In this document: positions 7,208-46,521 of the stretch, one piece after another | Numbering within the stretch: the stretch's first letter is position 1 | Layout: every line of letters begins with the position of its first letter | Source: an uncultured delta proteobacterium | GTDB lineage: Bacteria > Myxococcota_A > Polyangia > Polyangiales > Houyiibacteriaceae | Direction: 5' to 3' | Assembly (NCBI GenBank): GCA_963712235.1 | Contig: CAVQHC010000007.1 | Coordinates: forward strand, 221,144-285,143 | Length of the DNA: 64,000 bases | The notes under the pieces: generated by a model | Database searches by the model: none | What the model was told of the DNA's origin: nothing | What the model saw: only the letters and a program-made list of their open reading frames with translations | Program-made: the position numbers and the translations under genes

Positions 7208-8332
7208 CTAGAGTCCGCGAAGGACGGTTAGGTAGCGTTCGGCCGTGCTGTCCCAGGGGAACGTCGAGGTGACATATTCGGCGGTGCGTTTGCTTGCGGC
7301 GCGAAGGGCTTCGGGGTCGTCCGCTAGAGCTTGAATACGCGCTGCAAACGCATCCGCGTCTGCGGTCGGTGCGAACCAGCCGTTGACGCCTTCGTCGATG
7401 ACGTCTCGGATGCCTTCGAGGTCGGCGGCGAGCGTGGGGAGGCCGCAGGCGCCGGCTTCGAGCATCACGATGCCGAAGCCCTCCATGTCACCGGGGACGA
7501 CGATGTTCGGCATGACAAACAGCTGGCCTCTTCGGTAGAGCTCGACGAGCTCGGCTTCGGAAATCCTGCCCAAACAACGGACGCGTTGTTGAAGCCCCGC
7601 ACGTTCAATCGCCACTTGGATGTTCTCGCGTTCCGGTCCGTCGCCGGCGAGCCAGAAGACCACGCGATCTGGGAGTTTCGGCATGACGTTCTCGATGAAC
7701 CACGCGAATCCCTTGCGGCGGACTTGGCGCCCGACCGTGACCAGTAGGAATGCTTCCTCGGGCAGCGGCGGAGCCCCGGCAATGTCCAAACTCGCGGCTT
7801 CCATTCGCGAAGCCGCCACCCCCTCGAAGCGATCGAGGTCAACGGCGTTGGGGACCACGTGCACGCGTTCGCGCGGCAAACCGCGCTCCACCAACTGCTC
7901 GCCGGTGGCGCGGCTGACCGGCATGACTGCGTCGAGCATCCCGCACAGCCGCCGCACCGCCTTCTGGTACAGTGGGTTCGGGTCGGTGACGTCCAGTCCG
8001 TGCACAATTGCGGCCAGCCGGATGCCTTTCTTCTTGAGCGCAGGACCCGCGATCAGAAGCGGAAGCGCGCTGGTCATGCTGCTGAAGAGAATCGTATCGG
8101 CCCGATACGCCGCGGCCTCGCGTCCAAGCCGAACAGCGAGCGAAGCCAAGAACGGCACGGCTTTGACGTGCACCCACCTCCAACTCGAACGAAGCGCGAG
8201 GGTTCGCATCTGCACGTCGTCACGCTTCTCGAGCTCGCCGTGGAGCTCCATCGCCACGCGCTGCATTCCCCCCATGTTGCTCAATGGGGCATCCGACGGT
8301 GGAAACGAATGGGAGACGAAAAGGAGTCGCAC
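7208..8332 (-). CDS. glycosyltransferase family 4 (GT-B fold)
   Basis: 374-aa ORF with the EGFGIVMLEAGACGLP motif of GT4/GT1-type transferases. GTG start. Confidence 0.8.
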   Translation of the reverse strand: MRLLFVSHSFPPSDAPLSNMGGMQRVAMELHGELEKRDDVQMRTLALRSSWRWVHVKAVPFLASLAVRLGREAAAYRADTILFSSMTSALPLLIAGPALKKKGIRLAAIVHGLDVTDPNPLYQKAVRRLCGMLDAVMPVSRATGEQLVERGLPRERVHVVPNAVDLDRFEGVAASRMEAASLDIAGAPPLPEEAFLLVTVGRQVRRKGFAWFIENVMPKLPDRVVFWLAGDGPERENIQVAIERAGLQQRVRCLGRISEAELVELYRRGQLFVMPNIVVPGDMEGFGIVMLEAGACGLPTLAADLEGIRDVIDEGVNGWFAPTADADAFAARIQALADDPEALRAASKRTAEYVTSTFPWDSTAERYLTVLRGL

Positions 8333-12494: not shown

Positions 12495-14580
12495 CTAGAC
12501 GAGCAGCGGCGCGAGAACGAGCGCCACGATGCTCATCAGCTTCACTAGGATGTTGAGCGACGGACCTGCGGTGTCCTTGAAGGGGTCACCGACGGTGTCA
12601 CCGACGACCGCGGCGTTATGAGCCTCGCTGCCCTTGGGGTGGACCGTGCCATCCGTCATCTTGTAACCGCCGCTTTCGAACGACTTCTTGGCGTTGTCCC
12701 AAGCGCCACCGGCGTTGGCCATGAAAAGCGCCATCGTCACGCCCGAGACGGTCACCCCGGCGAGCAAGCCGCCAAGCGGCTCTGCCCCCATCGCGAAACC
12801 AACGATCACCGGGGTGAGAATGGCAAGCGCACCCGGAGCAATCATGCGCTTGAGCGACGCCTCGGTGGAGATCTTCACGCAGCGAGCCGTGTCCGGCTTG
12901 GCTTTGCCCTCGAGCAGCCCCGGAATCTCACGGAACTGACGACGAACCTCTTCGATCATGTCCATCGCCGCGACGCCCACGGCCTTCATCGCCATCGACG
13001 AGAAGAGGAAGGGGAGCATGCCGCCGAGGAACAGGCCGGCCATGACGAGCGGCTTCGAGATGTCGATGCCGGTGATGCCTGCCGTCTGGGCGAACGCCGC
13101 GAAGAGCGCGAGAGCGGTCATGGCCGCGGAGCCAATGGCGAAGCCCTTTCCGATGGCCGCGGTGGTGTTGCCAACGGCGTCGAGCTTGTCGGTGCGCTCA
13201 CGAACTTGAGGCTCCTGATGGCTCATCTCGGCAATGCCGCCAGCGTTGTCGGCGATGGGGCCGTAGGCGTCCACTGCGAGCTGAATGCCGGTGGTCGAGA
13301 GCATGCCGAGTGCCGCGATCGCAACGCCGTAAAGGCCCGCGACCTCTGCCGCGACGACCACGCCCGCCGCGATGACGAGAATGGGCATGGCGGTCGACTG
13401 CATGCCGACGCCAAGACCCGCGATGATGTTCGTCGCGGTGCCGGTCTTGCTCTGCTCGGCAATGCTATCGACCGGACCCTTGTGCATCGAGGTGTAGTAC
13501 GAGGTGATGAGACCGACGAAGACGCCTGCGCGCAAGGCCGGCGACGGTCGCCCAGCCGACGTTGATCCAGGTCACGACCTTGGCCCGCCGCGTTCGTCGT
13601 GCCGCCTTCCGGCCACATGTAGTAGGCGATGCCAAAGGTCGCGAGGGCCATGACGCCCGCCGCACCAAACGCGCCTCTGTCGAGCGCATGCTGAGGGTTG
13701 CCGCCCTCTTTGGTGCGCACGAAGAAGGTGCCCACCATCGAGCAAAGGATGCCCGCGCCGGCGATGACCAGCGGCATGATGACCGGGCCGACACTGCTCT
13801 CCGCTGTTCACAGCGACGAAGCCGAGCGCCAAGACCATCGCGCCGATGATCGCACCGACGAAGGACTCGAAAAGGTCGGCGCCCATGCCGGCGACGTCAC
13901 CGACGTTGTCACCGACGTTGTCTGCGATGACGGCAGGGTTACGGGGGTCATCCTCGGGAAGACCGGACTCGACCTTGCCGACGAGGTCGGCGCCGACGTC
14001 CGCGGCCTTGGTGTAGATGCCGCCGCCGACACGCGCGAAGAGCGCGATCGAGGAGGCACCCATCGAGAAACCGGTGATGACGTTGACGGTGCGGGTGAGC
14101 TCCCAGCCGAGAACGTTCATTGAAGACGAGGTAGAGCACGCTGAGACCGATGGTCGCGAGACCGACGACCGTCATGCCCATGACGGTGCCGCCGGAGAAC
14201 GCAACGTCGAGCGCCGGAGATAGGCCGATTCGAGCCGCCGCCGTGGTTCGCACGTTGGCATTGGTCGCGACCTTCATGCCGATCCAGCCCGCTGCAGCCG
14301 AGGAGGCCGCGCCGACGACGAAGGCGCCCGCGATCTGCCAGCCGCGCTCTGGGTCACCGAAGTAGGCAACGCCCAGAATCGCGCCGACGACGAGCACGAA
14401 GATCGAGAGGACGCGGTACTCCGCCCGAAGGAACGCCAGGGCGCCTTCCTGAATCTGGCCTGCGATTTCGACCATGGTGGCGTCGCCAGGATCTTGCTTC
14501 GAAACCCAATTCGCCTTCATCCAGGCGAAGATCAGAGCAAGCACGCCCGCTGCTGGGGCTGCGTAAATCAGATTTTGCAT
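12495..14580 (-). pseudogene. hppA: membrane-bound H+/Na+-translocating pyrophosphatase, reading frame broken four times
   Basis: Five consecutive ORF pieces (14580-, 14120-, 13777-, 13794- and 13535-frames) together give a colinear PPase sequence. It includes [26 protein letters not shown] and DNVGDNVGD. Frame changes lie near 14118-14124, 13790-13805, 13578-13591 and 13531-13542. Confidence 0.85.
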
Positions 14581-41623: not shown

Positions 41624-42954
41624 TGGTGCGGAGACGACGAGCAGGCCTGGCGGTGCCCGAGCTGATCGTTCGGAAGCGCGACGGAAAGAAGCTCACAGAC
41701 GACGAAATTCGTAGCCTCGTCGGCGGCTTCATGGACGGCTCGGTCACCGACTACCAGATGAGCGCGTTGGCGATGGCGGTTTACTTCCAGGGGATGGACT
41801 TTGGCGAAACCGTGGCGCTGACGCTAGCGATGCGCGACAGCGGCAGGGTTCTCGACCTCGCCGCCATCGACGCAGCGAAGGTGGACAAGCACTCGACCGG
41901 CGGAGTCGGTGACAAGGTCAGCATCTGCCTCGCACCGATCGTCGCGGCCTGTGGTGTGACGGTGCCGATGATGAGCGGCCGAGGCCTTGGGCACACCGGC
42001 GGCACCCTTGACAAGCTCGAAGCGATCCCCGGATTCCGGGTGGATCTCTCGGTGCGGGAATTTCGCGCGCAGCTCCGAAAGATCGGCTGCGCACTGATCG
42101 GACAAACGACTGACCTCGCACCCGCCGACAAACGACTCTACGCGCTGCGGGACGTCACCGGGACCGTCGAGTCGATCCCACTGATCACCTCGAGCATCTT
42201 GTCGAAAAAGCTCGCCGAGGGAATCGATGCGTTGGTACTGGACGTCAAGGTTGGTCGCGGGGCGTTCATGAAGACCGAGGCGGACGCTCGGGCGCTGGCG
42301 CGATCTCTGGTGCGCGTAGGAAGCCTGGCCGGGAAGCGGGTTTCCGCGCTGCTGACCGACATGAACAGCCCGATTGGCTACACGATCGGGAACGCGCTCG
42401 AAACCACAGAGGCGCTCGAGATCCTCCACGGTGAAGGGCCTGACGATCTGCGGCACCTGAGCTACGAGCTGGCCGCGGAGATGCTGCGGGCCGCTGGCGT
42501 CGAGAGAACCAAGGCACAGGCGCGACGACGCGTCGAGAGAGCCGTCAAAGAGGGGAGCGCTCTCGAAAAGATGCGCCAAATCGTCAGCGCGCAAGGCGGA
42601 GATCCGGCCGTGGTGGACGCACCGGATCGACTCGCGCTTGGACGACATCGAACGACCATCTGCGCCGCGAAAAATGGCTACGTCACCAAGCTCGACGCCC
42701 TCGAGCTCGGGTATGCATCGATGGGTCTGGGCGCAGGTCGCAGCCGTTCCGAGGACGCCGTCGATTGGGGAGCTGGGATCCGATTGCACGTTCAGCGCGG
42801 TGACCAGGTCCGACGGGGCGACGCGCTTGCCACCTTGTACGCATCGCGCAGGGCTCTACTAAAGCCGGGCGCAGACCGTACCGAATCCGCAATTCGAATT
42901 GGAACGAGGCGCCCTACCCCGCGCGATCGGATCATTGCGCTGATTCGTCGATGA
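41620..42954 (+). CDS. deoA: thymidine/pyrimidine-nucleoside phosphorylase
   Basis: KRDG..L, DKHSTGGVGDK and SGRGLGHTGGTLDK motifs. The start (GTG 41620 or ATG 41623) overlaps the rnr stop. Confidence 0.9.
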   Translation: MMVRRRRAGLAVPELIVRKRDGKKLTDDEIRSLVGGFMDGSVTDYQMSALAMAVYFQGMDFGETVALTLAMRDSGRVLDLAAIDAAKVDKHSTGGVGDKVSICLAPIVAACGVTVPMMSGRGLGHTGGTLDKLEAIPGFRVDLSVREFRAQLRKIGCALIGQTTDLAPADKRLYALRDVTGTVESIPLITSSILSKKLAEGIDALVLDVKVGRGAFMKTEADARALARSLVRVGSLAGKRVSALLTDMNSPIGYTIGNALETTEALEILHGEGPDDLRHLSYELAAEMLRAAGVERTKAQARRRVERAVKEGSALEKMRQIVSAQGGDPAVVDAPDRLALGRHRTTICAAKNGYVTKLDALELGYASMGLGAGRSRSEDAVDWGAGIRLHVQRGDQVRRGDALATLYASRRALLKPGADRTESAIRIGTRRPTPRDRIIALIRR

Positions 42955-44317
42955 CCGTGCAACCTTGATGGGCAGGCGCGCTGATCTGTGCGCGAAGGTC
43001 GTCGTATTCGGGCGAACCCAGGTAACTCGTGTCAGGGAAGTCGGCGCTCGCTGCATACTGTTCGCCGAGCGCCACGATGAAGTTTGCTCCACTTGCCCGT
43101 TCGAGCGCAGCCAGGACGCGAGACGCGCTAACGAGACGGGTCTCCTGTTGCCAATCGCGCTGCGCGTCGCTCAGGACCGTGAGCAGTGTGCTTTCTCCGT
43201 TGCTGTGGCGGCGAAGCCGGAGGTCGATTTCCAACGCAAACGCGGTGCCGGCCCAGTACACACGTTGATATTCCCCAGTCCGGTTCATGGTCCGGCTCTC
43301 GTCGCTGAGTGGTTGACCGGAGCCGGAACGTCGGCCACGCGCGAAGCCTTCGCGGATGCGGGTCCAGGCGCGTTCGCTGCTCTGCAGGCCGCAGCGCGCG
43401 CGGAGCACCTCCTGCAGGTACGTCGCGACGCCTTCGGACAGCCAGCGATCCTTGGCGTGCAGGCGCGGCAACCACAGGTGCGAGAGCTCGTGAATCGCCA
43501 CCCAATCGGCCTCGAGGTCAGCCACGCGAGCGGCGACGGACGGTAGGAGCAGGATCGACGAGCCGCCGCCCCTTCGGACCATCCCGAAAGCAACGTCGGC
43601 GCCTCTACCATCGACGGGGATGATGACGAACTGAAGGCGATCGCGGGGAAATCGACCACCGACCGATGCGGTGGTTTGTACGGCCCGACTCAGCCAGCGG
43701 CGAATGTCCCCGTCGACTGGAGTACCTCCCAGCCGTGCGATTTCGAGACGAGTTCCGGCAACCGAGAACGCTTGTCGGTCAAAGGCGCCAAATACACCGA
43801 AGGTCTCGACGAAGAAGGCGTCGCGGCTCGGCCTATATGCGCCATTGGAATGCGGCCATGACAAGGAGACCTGTCCGGCGCTCGGGACGGTGAAACGAAC
43901 CGAGGTGCTCAGCTGCCCGGGAAACGGTTCGGGCCGCCAGAGCCACTGGCTCTGAGAAAGGACGACGGCGGAAGAATCCTCCGGTCCAAACGGGCTTCGT
44001 TCAAACCGGGTTTCATACTCTACGCAAACAGGCGGAGGTTGCTGACCCAGCAGGATTCTACCGTCACTGGTCTGCTGCGGGATGCTATCGACCCAAGCAC
44101 CCCGCAGTTGCTCCACAGCGCTCCTATCGATCGGAACCAACGCCGACAAGGCCAGGCCCTGGAAGCATGCACGAACGCGAGCACCCACGAAGTTGTCAAA
44201 GATCGTAACGCTGTAGTGCGCGATGCCCCCCTGATGCGGCTCGCCCGGAGCGGAACCCGCACCGTGGGCGCAGGAAACAAGGCAAAGCAGCCCTGCGATT
44301 TTTCCTATGGTTTGCAC
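42932..44317 (-). CDS. gluzincin-type (M1/M61-like) zinc metallopeptidase lipoprotein
   Basis: Signal LLCLVSC. HELSH followed by WLSEG (HExxH...E). Confidence 0.6.
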   Translation of the reverse strand: MQTIGKIAGLLCLVSCAHGAGSAPGEPHQGGIAHYSVTIFDNFVGARVRACFQGLALSALVPIDRSAVEQLRGAWVDSIPQQTSDGRILLGQQPPPVCVEYETRFERSPFGPEDSSAVVLSQSQWLWRPEPFPGQLSTSVRFTVPSAGQVSLSWPHSNGAYRPSRDAFFVETFGVFGAFDRQAFSVAGTRLEIARLGGTPVDGDIRRWLSRAVQTTASVGGRFPRDRLQFVIIPVDGRGADVAFGMVRRGGGSSILLLPSVAARVADLEADWVAIHELSHLWLPRLHAKDRWLSEGVATYLQEVLRARCGLQSSERAWTRIREGFARGRRSGSGQPLSDESRTMNRTGEYQRVYWAGTAFALEIDLRLRRHSNGESTLLTVLSDAQRDWQQETRLVSASRVLAALERASGANFIVALGEQYAASADFPDTSYLGSPEYDDLRAQISAPAHQGCTVIDESAQ

Positions 44318-44432
44318 GATCTAAGTCCTCAGAATCTATGGAGTATTCGACTCAGATTGCCAGTAGCCCCGCAGAACAATTCCGATGAAACATCTAGGCC
44401 TGACGAACGTAGAGCATGGCATGACGCACGCT

Positions 44433-44447
44433 TGGCTTTTGGATTGC
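44433..44447 (+). promoter_or_regulatory. candidate sigma-54 -24/-12 element TGGCttttggaTTGC
   Basis: GG and GC dinucleotides at canonical spacing (TGGC-N7-TTGC). About 135 nt upstream of the precursor ORF, in a spacer of lower GC. Confidence 0.25.
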
Positions 44448-44582
44448 GATGCAACACCGCCTTGGCTAGCGTGCCTTCGTGGGAAGCGGGGTATGGGATT
44501 GGTCCTTGTCGCCGCGTTACATCACCGGGGAGCGGTTTGAATGCTCCGGATGCGAATACGAACAACTAGAGGGTACTCAAAC

Positions 44583-44825
44583 ATGAACACAGCACTCAAG
44601 CACACAATCATCGCAATGGCGACTGCGGCACTCGGTGTGACCGCCGGATGTAAGTCGGACGCTGGTCCGGAAGCCTCCGAGGCGACGACAGGCGCCGAGA
44701 CGGCAGCCGCGGCCGAGGCCTCGTGCGGCGAAGGCAGCTGCGGCGGAGCAAAGGATGCGGCTGAAAAGGCCGGCGATGCAGCGGAAGCTTCCTGCGGCGA
44801 AGGCAGCTGCGGCGGGGCGAAGTAA
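44583..44825 (+). CDS. small lipoprotein with two EASCGEGSCGGAK repeats: candidate MNIO-modified RiPP precursor (HvfA-like)
   Basis: 80-aa ORF. MNTALKHTIIAMATAALGVTAGC signal with lipobox. Two Cys-Gly-rich repeats. Immediately upstream of the DUF692 and DUF2063 genes. Confidence 0.65.
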   Translation: MNTALKHTIIAMATAALGVTAGCKSDAGPEASEATTGAETAAAAEASCGEGSCGGAKDAAEKAGDAAEASCGEGSCGGAK

Positions 44826-44921
44826 CCGTCCGAGCGCGTCGCGCGACCTCGACTGGGGCAGCACGATATTTCGAGCCGCGGCGGCAGCTGTCGCCGCGGC
44901 TCGTCTCTTTTCGGGACCCGC

Positions 44922-45788
44922 ATGAGTAGCACCAGCACTGCCGAGGTTAACCGCAGCGTCCATGGGATCGGCCTTGGCTTGCGCTACGACCTCGCATCCG
45001 AGCTGCTCGAACGTCGTCCGGAAACGGTCGCGTGGCTCGAAATTCATCCTGAAAACTACGTCAATCGAGGGGGCCGCTACCAGGAGATGCTCGACCTGGC
45101 GCGACGAGACTGGCCCATCGTCACCCACGGGCTCAGCACTTGCCTCGGCGCGCTCGAGCCCTTCGACGCCCGCTACCTCAAGGAGCTGCGGGCGTTCTTG
45201 TCCGACGTCGAGATCCCCTGGCACAGCGAGCACCTCTGCCTCGGAGGCGTCGACGATCGCTTCTTTCACGACTTGCTCCCGCTTCCATTCACGGAGGAGG
45301 CCGCGCAGATCGCATCTCAGCGATTGATCGAAGTGAGAGACGCACTCGACGTTCCCCTCGCCTTGGAGAACGCGAGCTATTACGCGCCGCAGTGCGAAGA
45401 CGGATTGGCGGAAGCCGATTTCGTGGTCGAGGTCCTGGAACGCGCGGACGCAAAGCTCCTTTTGGACGTGAACAACATCTACGTAAACAGTTGCAACTTC
45501 GACTTCGATCCCAAAGCCTATATCGACAAGATTCCCGCCGACCGCGTGGTGCAGCTCCACGTTGCTGGTCACTTCGTTCGCGACGACGGACTGCGCATCG
45601 ACACGCACGGCGAGGCCGTGCCGAATGAGGTCTATCAACTCCTCGACTATGCGCTGCGGAAGATCGGCCCGGTGCCGGTCTTGCTCGAGCGGGACAACAA
45701 CGTCCCGCCACTGGACGAGCTTCTCGCAGAGGTCGATGAGCTCTGGAAGATCTACCGCAGCGCGACACAGGACGAGCATGCTGGCTAA
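44922..45788 (+). CDS. DUF692 family multinuclear non-heme iron oxidase (MNIO; MbnB/HvfB/BufB-like)
   Basis: 288 aa with GIGLGLR, WLEIHPENY, PWHSEHLC, LALENASYY, LLLDVNNIYVN, QLHVAGH and LLERDNN motifs characteristic of DUF692. Confidence 0.85.
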   Translation: MSSTSTAEVNRSVHGIGLGLRYDLASELLERRPETVAWLEIHPENYVNRGGRYQEMLDLARRDWPIVTHGLSTCLGALEPFDARYLKELRAFLSDVEIPWHSEHLCLGGVDDRFFHDLLPLPFTEEAAQIASQRLIEVRDALDVPLALENASYYAPQCEDGLAEADFVVEVLERADAKLLLDVNNIYVNSCNFDFDPKAYIDKIPADRVVQLHVAGHFVRDDGLRIDTHGEAVPNEVYQLLDYALRKIGPVPVLLERDNNVPPLDELLAEVDELWKIYRSATQDEHAG

Positions 45789-46521
45789 TCGCGCGAAAGC
45801 GATGCAGCGTGTTTGCTTCGACGTCGAACCAAGTGAAGCGGACCTCGAGCTTCTGGGGTCGCGCGAGCGCTGGCTGGTGTATCGCGAGCTCGTCCAGAAC
45901 CGGCTCCTGCAGGTGATCAGCGTCGCCCTGGCTCGCACCAAAGCGGCGATCGGAGAGGCGGCGTTCGGGCGTGCCGTCGCTGAGTGGCTGAGCCGTGGGG
46001 GGCCCAAGGCTCGGTACCTGCGCTACGTGCCCACCGAGTTGGCAGAGTTCGCGATTCCCATCTGGCAAGACAACGAAGCACCTTGGGTGGCCGAGCTGGC
46101 GCGCTTCGAAATCGCGAGCTGGAGCGTGCGGCACGCAGCAAGGGACCCAGAACCCGAAACCGAGTTCGCATTCGACCGAAGGCCGGTGCTGGGCGCTGCG
46201 ATCGAGGTCTTGCGCCTCAAGTACCCCGTCCACGAGAAGCCCACCCCGGCAGCGGGCTACAGACCCGATCCGACCTTCCTTTGTGTCTACCGCGACGTCG
46301 ATCACCGAGCGTCGACGAGAACACTAAACGCCTTGGCGGCCGACCTCCTCGATGCCTGGAAACGCGCCGACGAAACGGTCGCCGAATCGGTCCAACGCAT
46401 CGCGGCCCAGCACCAGACCGAAATCGGCCCCGCCTTCATCGAGAAGCTCTCGGCCATCATCGCCGATTTCATCATCGGGGGACACGCCGCCCCCCCTTCT
46501 AATAGCCTTCCACCTTGCTGA
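45778..46521 (+). CDS. DUF2063-like MNIO partner protein (HvfC/BufC-like)
   Basis: About 247 aa, overlapping the DUF692 gene by 11 nt. LVYRELVQNRL near the N-terminus resembles the DUF2063 N-domain. The assignment rests partly on the conserved gene pairing. Confidence 0.65.
   Translation: MLANRAKAMQRVCFDVEPSEADLELLGSRERWLVYRELVQNRLLQVISVALARTKAAIGEAAFGRAVAEWLSRGGPKARYLRYVPTELAEFAIPIWQDNEAPWVAELARFEIASWSVRHAARDPEPETEFAFDRRPVLGAAIEVLRLKYPVHEKPTPAAGYRPDPTFLCVYRDVDHRASTRTLNALAADLLDAWKRADETVAESVQRIAAQHQTEIGPAFIEKLSAIIADFIIGGHAAPPSNSLPPC

Follow-up and report, generated by a model that had tools for sequence, protein, structure and literature searches.

The described gene clusters closest to the locus reported here pair a multinuclear non-heme iron oxidase (MNIO, DUF692) with a DUF2063/PME1 partner that together modify cysteines of a precursor peptide. 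In nontypeable Haemophilus influenzae, the product of HvfABC is oxazolin, a virulence factor that binds copper (PMC11252979), and the oxazolin modification has been reassigned from an oxazolone/thioamide to a 5-thiooxazole (PMC12668002; 10.64898/2026.06.05.730506). A catalogue of Buf_EGKCG/oxazolin precursors counts about 2,000, in clusters of precursor, MNIO, DUF2063 and DoxX genes “in various combinations” (PMC12452194), and more than 24,000 MNIO-PME1 loci, 74 of them in Myxococcota, were unified as captophorins (PMC12668002). Captophorins are recognized by Cu(I) binding and by Cys that have each given up four electrons and 4 Da to become a 5-thiooxazole (absorbance at ∼305 nm), and the characterized MNIO-PME1 pairs (Hvf, Fon, Ngo, and Buf) all make Cys 5-thiooxazoles and Cu-binding peptides (PMC12668002; 10.64898/2026.06.05.730506). 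Reconstitution in vitro has been achieved for the three-gene cluster fonABC (PMC12668002), lipoprotein-type precursors are predicted for 16% of Buf2 bufferins (PMC12452194), and signal peptidase II signals are predicted in a subset of oxazolins, with NedA from Neisseria dentiae being triacylated and modified at three EGKCG motifs (PMC13056109). Here, a 64-kb stretch of DNA from an uncultured Polyangiales bacterium (the window) was found to carry three such genes, A, B, and C, next to a divergent gene, P. Gene identities, conserved catalytic residues, a lipobox, gene linkage and conserved non-coding signals were observed, and they point to a captophorin/oxazolin-type system for a peptide that is made by the ribosome and then modified post-translationally (RiPP), a reading to which, with the stepwise mechanism proposed below, we give a probability of about 75%. 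On this reading the locus is a Polyangia-specific Ser-Cys lipoprotein captophorin system, a modestly novel variant with an ordinary core, to which are added a linked, uncharacterized lipoprotein metallopeptidase gene (P), a promoter of the extracytoplasmic function (ECF) sigma factor type with a private leader, and an intercistronic attenuator-type hairpin. The core system adds little, since MNIO-PME1 loci number in the tens of thousands, and the interest of the locus rests mainly on the peptidase link.

The open reading frames (ORFs) of the 80-amino-acid (aa) precursor A (44583-44825), the 288-aa oxidase B (44922-45788) and the 247-aa partner C (45778-46521) were re-read on the + strand of the window exactly where an earlier note on this DNA, made from the sequence alone, had placed them, and the motifs quoted there for B and the 11-nt overlap of B and C were found as well; an overlap of 10–11 nt recurs in the gene calls of relatives. 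Profile searches upheld the pairing of an MNIO and a DUF2063/HvfC protein with an HvfA-type precursor, with matches to PF05114, PF09836, PF22106, and NF050137 that chance would not produce. B matched Pfam PF05114 with 309.4 bits (cut-off 25) over profile positions 1–260 of 263. Its best NCBIfam matches, far above ApyH, ChrH, and MbnB, were HvfB (NF003818, 299.4 bits, under the cut-off of 360; E 1e-89) and BufB (NF050167, 274.2 bits, under the cut-off of 310; E 1e-82), and judged by these profiles B is a relative of both and the equivalog of neither. It was 46% identical to FonB, and its closest sequence in the PDB was 3BWW, a DUF692 protein of Histophilus somni (9e-51). C, the HvfC/BufC-type partner (PME1), was made up of an N-terminal DUF2063 domain (PF09836, 32.6 bits, cut-off 27.2) and a C-terminal NGO1945-type domain (PF22106, 48.5 bits, cut-off 27); it scored 86.2 bits against HvfC (NF050145), under the cut-off of 142, was 27% identical to FonC (E 1e-8), and matched no PDB sequence at E ≤ 0.1. 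The ligand and catalytic positions of B (H69, H104, E149, D182, N185, H213, D227, H229, E256, and D258), whose roles were taken from the literature and mapped by alignment, were identical in FonB, HvfB, and NgoB. Conservation of the iron-ligand positions and that of the catalytic Asp (FonB Asp249) extended to 120 of 120 clade members, in which they were invariant or nearly so. The family matches, the conserved catalytic positions and a precursor with Cys repeats and a predicted signal peptide support the envelope-targeted RiPP metallophore locus that the earlier note had proposed.

Gene A, preceded at a distance of 9 nt by a Shine-Dalgarno sequence (AGAGGG, 44568-44573), encodes MNTALKHTIIAMATAALGVTAGCKSDAGPEASEATTGAETAAAAEASCGEGSCGGAKDAAEKAGDAAEASCGEGSCGGAK. 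Its N-terminal part, MNTALKHTIIAMATAALGVTAGC, is followed by KSD after the predicted cleavage point. As read from the sequence, K6 makes the n-region basic, a hydrophobic stretch comes next, and the lipobox satisfies the PROSITE-type rule. The predicted signal peptide with its lipobox spans aa 1–23, with the codon of Cys23 at 44649-44651; next come a conserved KSD(A/D)GPEA segment, an Ala/Glu-rich linker, and two exact EASCGEGSCGGAK repeats at aa 45–57 (44715-44753) and aa 68–80 (44784-44822). Besides the lipobox Cys23, there are four Cys (48, 53, 71, and 76), each in Ser-Cys-Gly and all in an E-(A/G)-S-C-G context. A passed the threshold of NCBIfam NF050137 (HvfA family, KCGExKCG_twice domain) with 25.7 bits against 19.5 over residues 33–55. 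In each of the related loci examined, a homologous precursor ORF lay ahead of the MNIO gene, and over the first 31 codons of 25 loci there were 504, 590, and 2557 differences at codon positions 1, 2, and 3, respectively. The excess at the third position, together with the recurrence of the ORF, shows that the 80-aa ORF is coding.

Among the precursor homologues, the lipobox was found in 117 of 120 and Lys at position +2 in 107 of 120, and the number of target Cys per precursor was mostly four (range 2–7). The motif EGSCG occurred 230 times, EASCG 163 times and EGKCG only three times. Of the EGKCG motif by which Buf_EGKCG precursors are defined, A keeps Glu1, Cys4, and Gly5 and lacks Lys3. Distant Polyangia/Sandaracinaceae loci (53–62% MNIO identity) also encode predicted lipoprotein precursors, with the motifs EASCS, ESSCG, or GSCG. 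The precursor belongs to a Polyangia-wide predicted lipoprotein subfamily in which E(A/G)SCG replaces EGKCG. Residues 1–32 of A (44583-44680), comprising the signal peptide and CKSD[A/D]GPEA, were nearly invariant even though the linkers vary freely. Conservation of this kind is unusual for a signal peptide and hints at a second role; the alignment suggests that this segment may double as a recognition element for the HvfC-type partner or the sorting machinery. In one relative (L009, 7663-8004) the precursor frame is shifted after about 40 codons, the repeat part continuing in another frame (7728-7904), and the peptidase match of this locus is also split in two; L009 represents either a sequencing error or a decaying locus.

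Mutagenesis has shown that FonB reads its substrate through Arg16 (Glu1) and Phe250 (Lys3/Gly5) (PMC12668002). HvfB-type “Lys-Cys” MNIOs have Arg-Arg at FonB positions 15/16 and Phe at 250 (PMC12668002); B has Arg21-Tyr22 and Asn259 there. Across the clade, Tyr (108) or His (12) occupies the position of FonB Arg16, which contacts substrate Glu1, and Asn (108), Ser (10), or Thr (2) occupies that of Phe250, which contacts Lys3/Gly5. In the distant Polyangia enzymes, Arg gives way to yet other residues at the first of these positions, and the second is Gly, Gln, or Asp. Inside the close clade (74–99% MNIO identity), residue-level covariation of the enzyme with Lys or Ser in the substrate was not found. 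For FonBC, the residue before Cys may be Ala, Arg, or Thr, and the one that follows must be small (PMC12668002); this tolerance, with the natural AEGSCG of NgoA, makes modification of SCG plausible. The Ser-Cys substrates of the clade, combined with changes at two enzyme positions defined by mutagenesis, amount to a natural test of the specificity rules. A few lineages (L029, L095, L105, L099/L110, and L116) carry EAKCGEGKCG or mixed Thr/Asn/Lys/Ser motifs with an oxidase unchanged at Tyr22 and Asn259, and most of them are without the peptidase gene.

With HvfABC(X), the locus shares the order of precursor, MNIO and DUF2063 partner, a predicted Sec signal, and the repeat logic seen in HvfA as E-G-x-C-G-E-G-x-C-G. 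In HvfA, however, each Cys is preceded by Lys, the target Cys number six in addition to a disulfide pair, and the signal is one for signal peptidase I; the hvf operon also includes DoxX, whereas here Ser precedes each of four target Cys, the precursor has a lipobox, DoxX is lacking, and Tyr/Asn replace Arg/Phe of HvfB. FonABC (fontiphorin, Fontimonas thermophila) is likewise a three-gene core without DoxX and follows the same Glu-x-x-Cys-Gly repeat logic; A has the two or more repeats and the small residue following Cys on which FonBC depends (PMC12668002). FonA differs in being gammaproteobacterial, in its seven EGKCG motifs and in not being described as a lipoprotein; no peptidase is associated with it, and FonB has Arg16 and Phe250 in place of the Tyr and Asn of B. 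NedABC is similar in its EGxCG-type precursor with a signal peptidase II signal, which is modified by MNIO and partner and then triacylated. NedA is betaproteobacterial with EGKCG motifs, and no linked peptidase, ECF promoter or leader is reported for it (PMC13056109), in contrast to the precursor family of the window, which is Polyangia-specific with Lys at +2. In NgoABC (gonophorin, Neisseria gonorrhoeae; PMC12668002 supplement), the precursor has AEGSCG beside EGKCG, and the PME1 is of the NGO1945 type, which C matches through PF22106. NgoA nevertheless has mixed Ser/Lys motifs and a non-lipoprotein signal, DoxX is present, and NgoB keeps Arg-Arg and Asp-Phe. The lipobox and the lack of DoxX and of a neighboring regulator, which the earlier note had listed as differences from the described loci, hold as observations, but each has a published precedent (fonABC, variable DoxX, NedA), so that they are real without being new or distinguishing.

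The gene P (42932-44317, - strand), divergent from A, encodes a protein of 461 aa, predicted to be a lipoprotein and a zinc metallopeptidase whose gluzincin fold is M1/M61-like, and is the candidate fourth component of the system. The N-terminus, MQTIGKIAGLLCLVSC, is of the lipoprotein type (LLCLVSC) and carries a lipobox. The site HELSH-x14-E (WLSEGVATYLQE; H276, E277, H280, and E295) is family-invariant and lies in the context WLSEG(V/I)ATYLQE; the active-site motif was kept in 131 of 133 full-length representatives. At the position of the M1 motif GAMEN (GxMEN), P has FGMVRRG, and both clades share FG-x3-RG, as do most of the 133 representatives. P thus has no counterpart of the GxMEN Glu to which a free N-terminus is anchored and is possibly not an aminopeptidase. 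Matches to Pfam M61 (PF05299, 19.3 against a cut-off of 22) and M1 (PF01433, 15.3 against 27.7) were both below threshold, no NCBIfam model was matched, and all database homologues are annotated “hypothetical protein.” An AlphaFold2 model (pLDDT 88.7, pTM 0.87) gave Foldseek top matches to 4FGM, 7XYO (Myxococcus fulvus), 8J9C, and 6A8Z (E 1e-17 to 1e-15, TM 0.5–0.65), and the family profile of P reached the same M61/M1 structures by sequence at E ∼1e-4. Like these M61 glycyl aminopeptidases and two-domain M1 enzymes, P combines a beta-sandwich with a thermolysin-like catalytic fold and has HExxH with a downstream Glu in a WLxEG context. It differs from the M61 structures in its length (461 aa versus 520–650 aa), its lipoprotein signal and a sequence similarity that is marginal. 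An exhaustive profile search found 1,053 representatives of the family at E ≤ 1e-30 and 1,827 at E ≤ 1e-10, which puts this unnamed family at roughly 1,000–1,800 representative clusters.

The closest homologues of the cluster came from metagenome-assembled genomes labeled Polyangiales, Myxococcales, or Sandaracinaceae. In the close clade the cluster always lay in one housekeeping neighborhood, in the order RNase R, thymidine phosphorylase, [P], A-B-C, acyl-CoA dehydrogenase, rpoC, and rpoB, and a tblastn search for P over 85 loci placed it divergent and adjacent upstream of A in about two-thirds of the close-clade loci. In ten distant Sandaracinaceae-type loci, a P homologue (30–37% identity, lipobox also present) stood immediately downstream of C on the same strand, starting in L044 6 nt past the stop codon of C; the genomic contexts were unrelated, with flanking genes such as EPSP synthase and YceI. 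Three of three independent look-ups of distant P homologues were beside an A-B-C cluster. An adjacency kept through rearrangement and a shared predicted compartment argue for a functional link of P with the cluster, and the minimal three-gene system proposed in the earlier note is probably wrong in this respect. The convergent thymidine phosphorylase and P genes overlap by 23 nt at their 3′ ends (42932-42954), and the same junction is found in relatives that keep P. Because the first five related loci were without P, a window-specific insertion was considered and was ruled out by the search over the 85 loci, which showed these five to be lineages that had lost the gene, some of them keeping remnants.

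No peptidase for the MNIO-PME1 class is mentioned in the MNIO landscape paper or in the captophorin paper and its supplement (PMC12668002), and the latter states as open whether a host protease cuts EGKCG products (PMC12668002). We tentatively propose P as a dedicated processing enzyme of lipid-anchored thiooxazole metallophores, which might cut the modified, possibly metal-loaded peptide off its anchor or trim it; we hold this assignment to be less likely than not. The linked lipoprotein peptidase is a concrete candidate for the processing step that the captophorin literature lists as unknown. If the proposal is right, MNIO-PME1 (captophorin) RiPPs would have in P their first pathway-specific protease, the functional product in Polyangia would be a released small peptide, or else shedding would serve to dispose of copper, and P would settle whether EGxCG products remain one polypeptide.

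Several points weigh against the overall reading or parts of it. P was missing or a remnant in about a third of the close loci, and in about half of the distant ones no P was detected over a distance of 8 kb. A-B-C stayed intact in L001/L012, L002/L022, L004, L016, L018, L020, L026, L028, L029, L031, L095, L097, L099, L103, and L121, where P is absent or decayed. Short remnants between thymidine phosphorylase and A (L001/L012, 7152-7363; L016, 7204-7386; L018, 6941-7390; L121, 2815-2997) indicate repeated recent gene decay, and losses so frequent imply that P is dispensable. Its adjacency in the close clade could be mere inherited synteny, and the family is large (1,827 representatives), with the gene context seen for few. 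It is therefore quite conceivable, if somewhat short of an even chance, that the same enzymology operates in a truly three-gene system in which P is a bystander, through inherited synteny in the close clade and coincidence in the distant one; published three-gene clusters are, moreover, fully active in E. coli (PMC12668002). Against such a bystander stand the change in gene order between clades (divergent upstream versus operonic downstream) with adjacency kept, the unrelated flanks of the distant loci, the three look-ups that all landed beside MNIO clusters, and the prediction that P and A are both lipoproteins and would share one compartment. In distant loci without P, TetR-family regulators, YceI and alpha/beta hydrolase genes were nearby, none of them consistent across loci. 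YceI-like or TetR-family regulator genes follow the cluster in some distant Polyangia (L037, 10634-11284; L046, 11172-11852; L039, 2021-2626; L045, 9619-10233; L052, 9540-10298) and may be alternative accessory or regulatory genes.

The captophorin/oxazolin reading of the core is weakened in turn by the scores of B and C under the HvfB, BufB, and HvfC equivalog cut-offs, which mean that isofunctionality is not guaranteed, and by L029 (7689-7928), where an EGKCG core occurs with Tyr and Asn retained in the oxidase, so that the correlation with Ser-Cys is loose and holds at clade level only. Among the 24 window ORFs scanned, there was no copper-homeostasis, DoxX, or ECF sigma factor gene, and the chemistry, metal, localization, lipidation and role of P are all steps that we infer. 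Given the divergence of the clade, B might make a modification other than 5-thiooxazole, or its product might serve a non-copper metal or stress. The scores under every equivalog cut-off, the two substrate-contacting positions unlike those of all characterized enzymes, Ser instead of Lys before Cys, the lack of copper genes nearby and the many different reactions catalyzed in the MNIO superfamily (PMC12452194) would fit such a divergence. This alternative is unlikely, however, with HvfB and BufB still the best NCBIfam matches of B, the catalytic Asp and all ligand positions conserved, the Cys-Gly dyad required by FonB retained in A, and 5-thiooxazoles made by every PME1-dependent MNIO tested to date (PMC12668002). 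Of the oxazolone/thioamide and thiooxazole products that the earlier note named for such systems, the one now to be expected is the 5-thiooxazole (10.64898/2026.06.05.730506; PMC12668002). It also seems improbable that A escapes lipidation and is cut by signal peptidase I, for example after VTA, to become a soluble periplasmic peptide like HvfA with Cys23 as a fifth ligand or a disulfide/redox residue: HvfA is indeed cleaved in this way (PMC11252979), lipobox position -3 of A is Thr/Ser and not the canonical Leu, a further point against the lipoprotein reading, and V-T-A, as read from the sequence, resembles an AxA-type site, but the Cys is at this exact position in 117 of 120 homologues and in distant Polyangia precursors of otherwise very different sequence, the PROSITE-style rule is satisfied, Cys23 as the sole Cys outside the repeats has no disulfide partner, and lipidated oxazolins are known (PMC13056109).

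Upstream of A, an ECF-sigma-type promoter candidate, TGAAAC-N16-CGTA, was found on the + strand at 44386-44411 (TGAAAC 44386-44391, CGTA 44408-44411), with a transcription start predicted near 44418-44421; no sigma-70-type promoter was found in the region. GAAACAT and CGTA were invariant in 15 aligned loci, in which the spacer varied in sequence and was fixed in length. The motif occurred once in the 64-kb window against 0.05 expected, once upstream of A in all close-clade loci and in L031, L035, and L042, and in 36 of 40 metagenome loci carrying the leader pattern described below. We take it to resemble the SigW consensus of B. subtilis. The motif follows the general ECF promoter pattern, which consists of AAC at -35, 16–18 nt, and then a -10 element (PMC3107203). 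Many bufferin clusters encode a sigma/anti-sigma pair, whereas none is encoded beside this locus.

The promoter is followed by a conserved 5′ leader of about 160 nt (44419-44582, + strand), which includes the Shine-Dalgarno sequence of A and in which the invariant blocks TCATGACG, GGATTGC, GCTAGCGTG, GGGATTGGTCC, GCGTTGCATC, and GCTCCnGATGC alternate with variable stretches. When metagenomes were scanned for the exact leader pattern, 40 of 40 matches lay 71–79 nt upstream of a homologous precursor gene, which indicates that the leader is private to this operon; a shared regulon element was rejected on the same data. The leader had no match in Rfam, and a structured RNA or riboswitch was unsupported, with only -10 kcal/mol and two covarying pairs in RNAalifold and single-sequence z-scores of +0.5, -0.3, and -1.7. 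A small ORF (44385-44540) was ruled out by indels between loci that are not multiples of three. Conservation may instead act at the DNA or protein-binding level. With an invariant ECF-type promoter and a conserved leader, a reading of the locus as unregulated is probably wrong in substance, and the two elements could help to identify the regulator and the inducing signal in Myxococcota.

Between A and B, a terminator scan found a conserved hairpin with a tail (44872-44913, + strand). Of the 14 pairs in the stem-loop (44872-44903), 12 are G-C, and the T-rich tail TCTCTTTTCG follows. The hairpin was kept in all 16 aligned loci, where the three basal pairs show compensatory changes, and it reappeared in the minimum-energy fold of the A-B intergenic region. 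RiPP operons commonly have hairpins that separate the precursor gene from the enzyme genes, and the one here probably acts as a leaky terminator governing the proportion of precursor to enzyme.

The mechanism that we propose would begin with an unlinked ECF sigma factor transcribing the operon from TGAAAC-N16-CGTA through the conserved leader, after which the leaky hairpin would attenuate read-through and yield more precursor than enzyme transcript. In the cytoplasm, by homology to the described systems, a complex of B and C would oxidize A at its four E(A/G)SCG Cys, each losing 4 Da to become a 5-thiooxazole and offering thiolate/nitrogen ligands for Cu(I). Modified A would then be exported by Sec, Cys23 would be lipidated by Lgt, Lsp, and Lnt, and signal peptidase II would cleave the signal. 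In Myxococcus xanthus, a Lys at +2 is the mark of lipoproteins of the inner membrane (PMC3222651), and because residue +2 of A is Lys, the lipidated peptide would probably be retained on the periplasmic face of the inner membrane as a tethered buffer for copper or another thiophilic metal. In the most speculative step, P would act on the lipopeptide in the same compartment, releasing, trimming or turning over the metal-binding segment.

Two further ORFs in the window were noted. A 476-aa antisense ORF (44577-46007, - strand) overlaps genes A and B and was treated as spurious, most likely being an open frame typical of high-GC DNA. Finally, a 210-aa ORF (13948-14580, - strand) matched only positions 1–139 of 645 in the H+-pyrophosphatase profile and represents either a gene that is truncated or frameshifted or an ORF whose limits are wrongly drawn.

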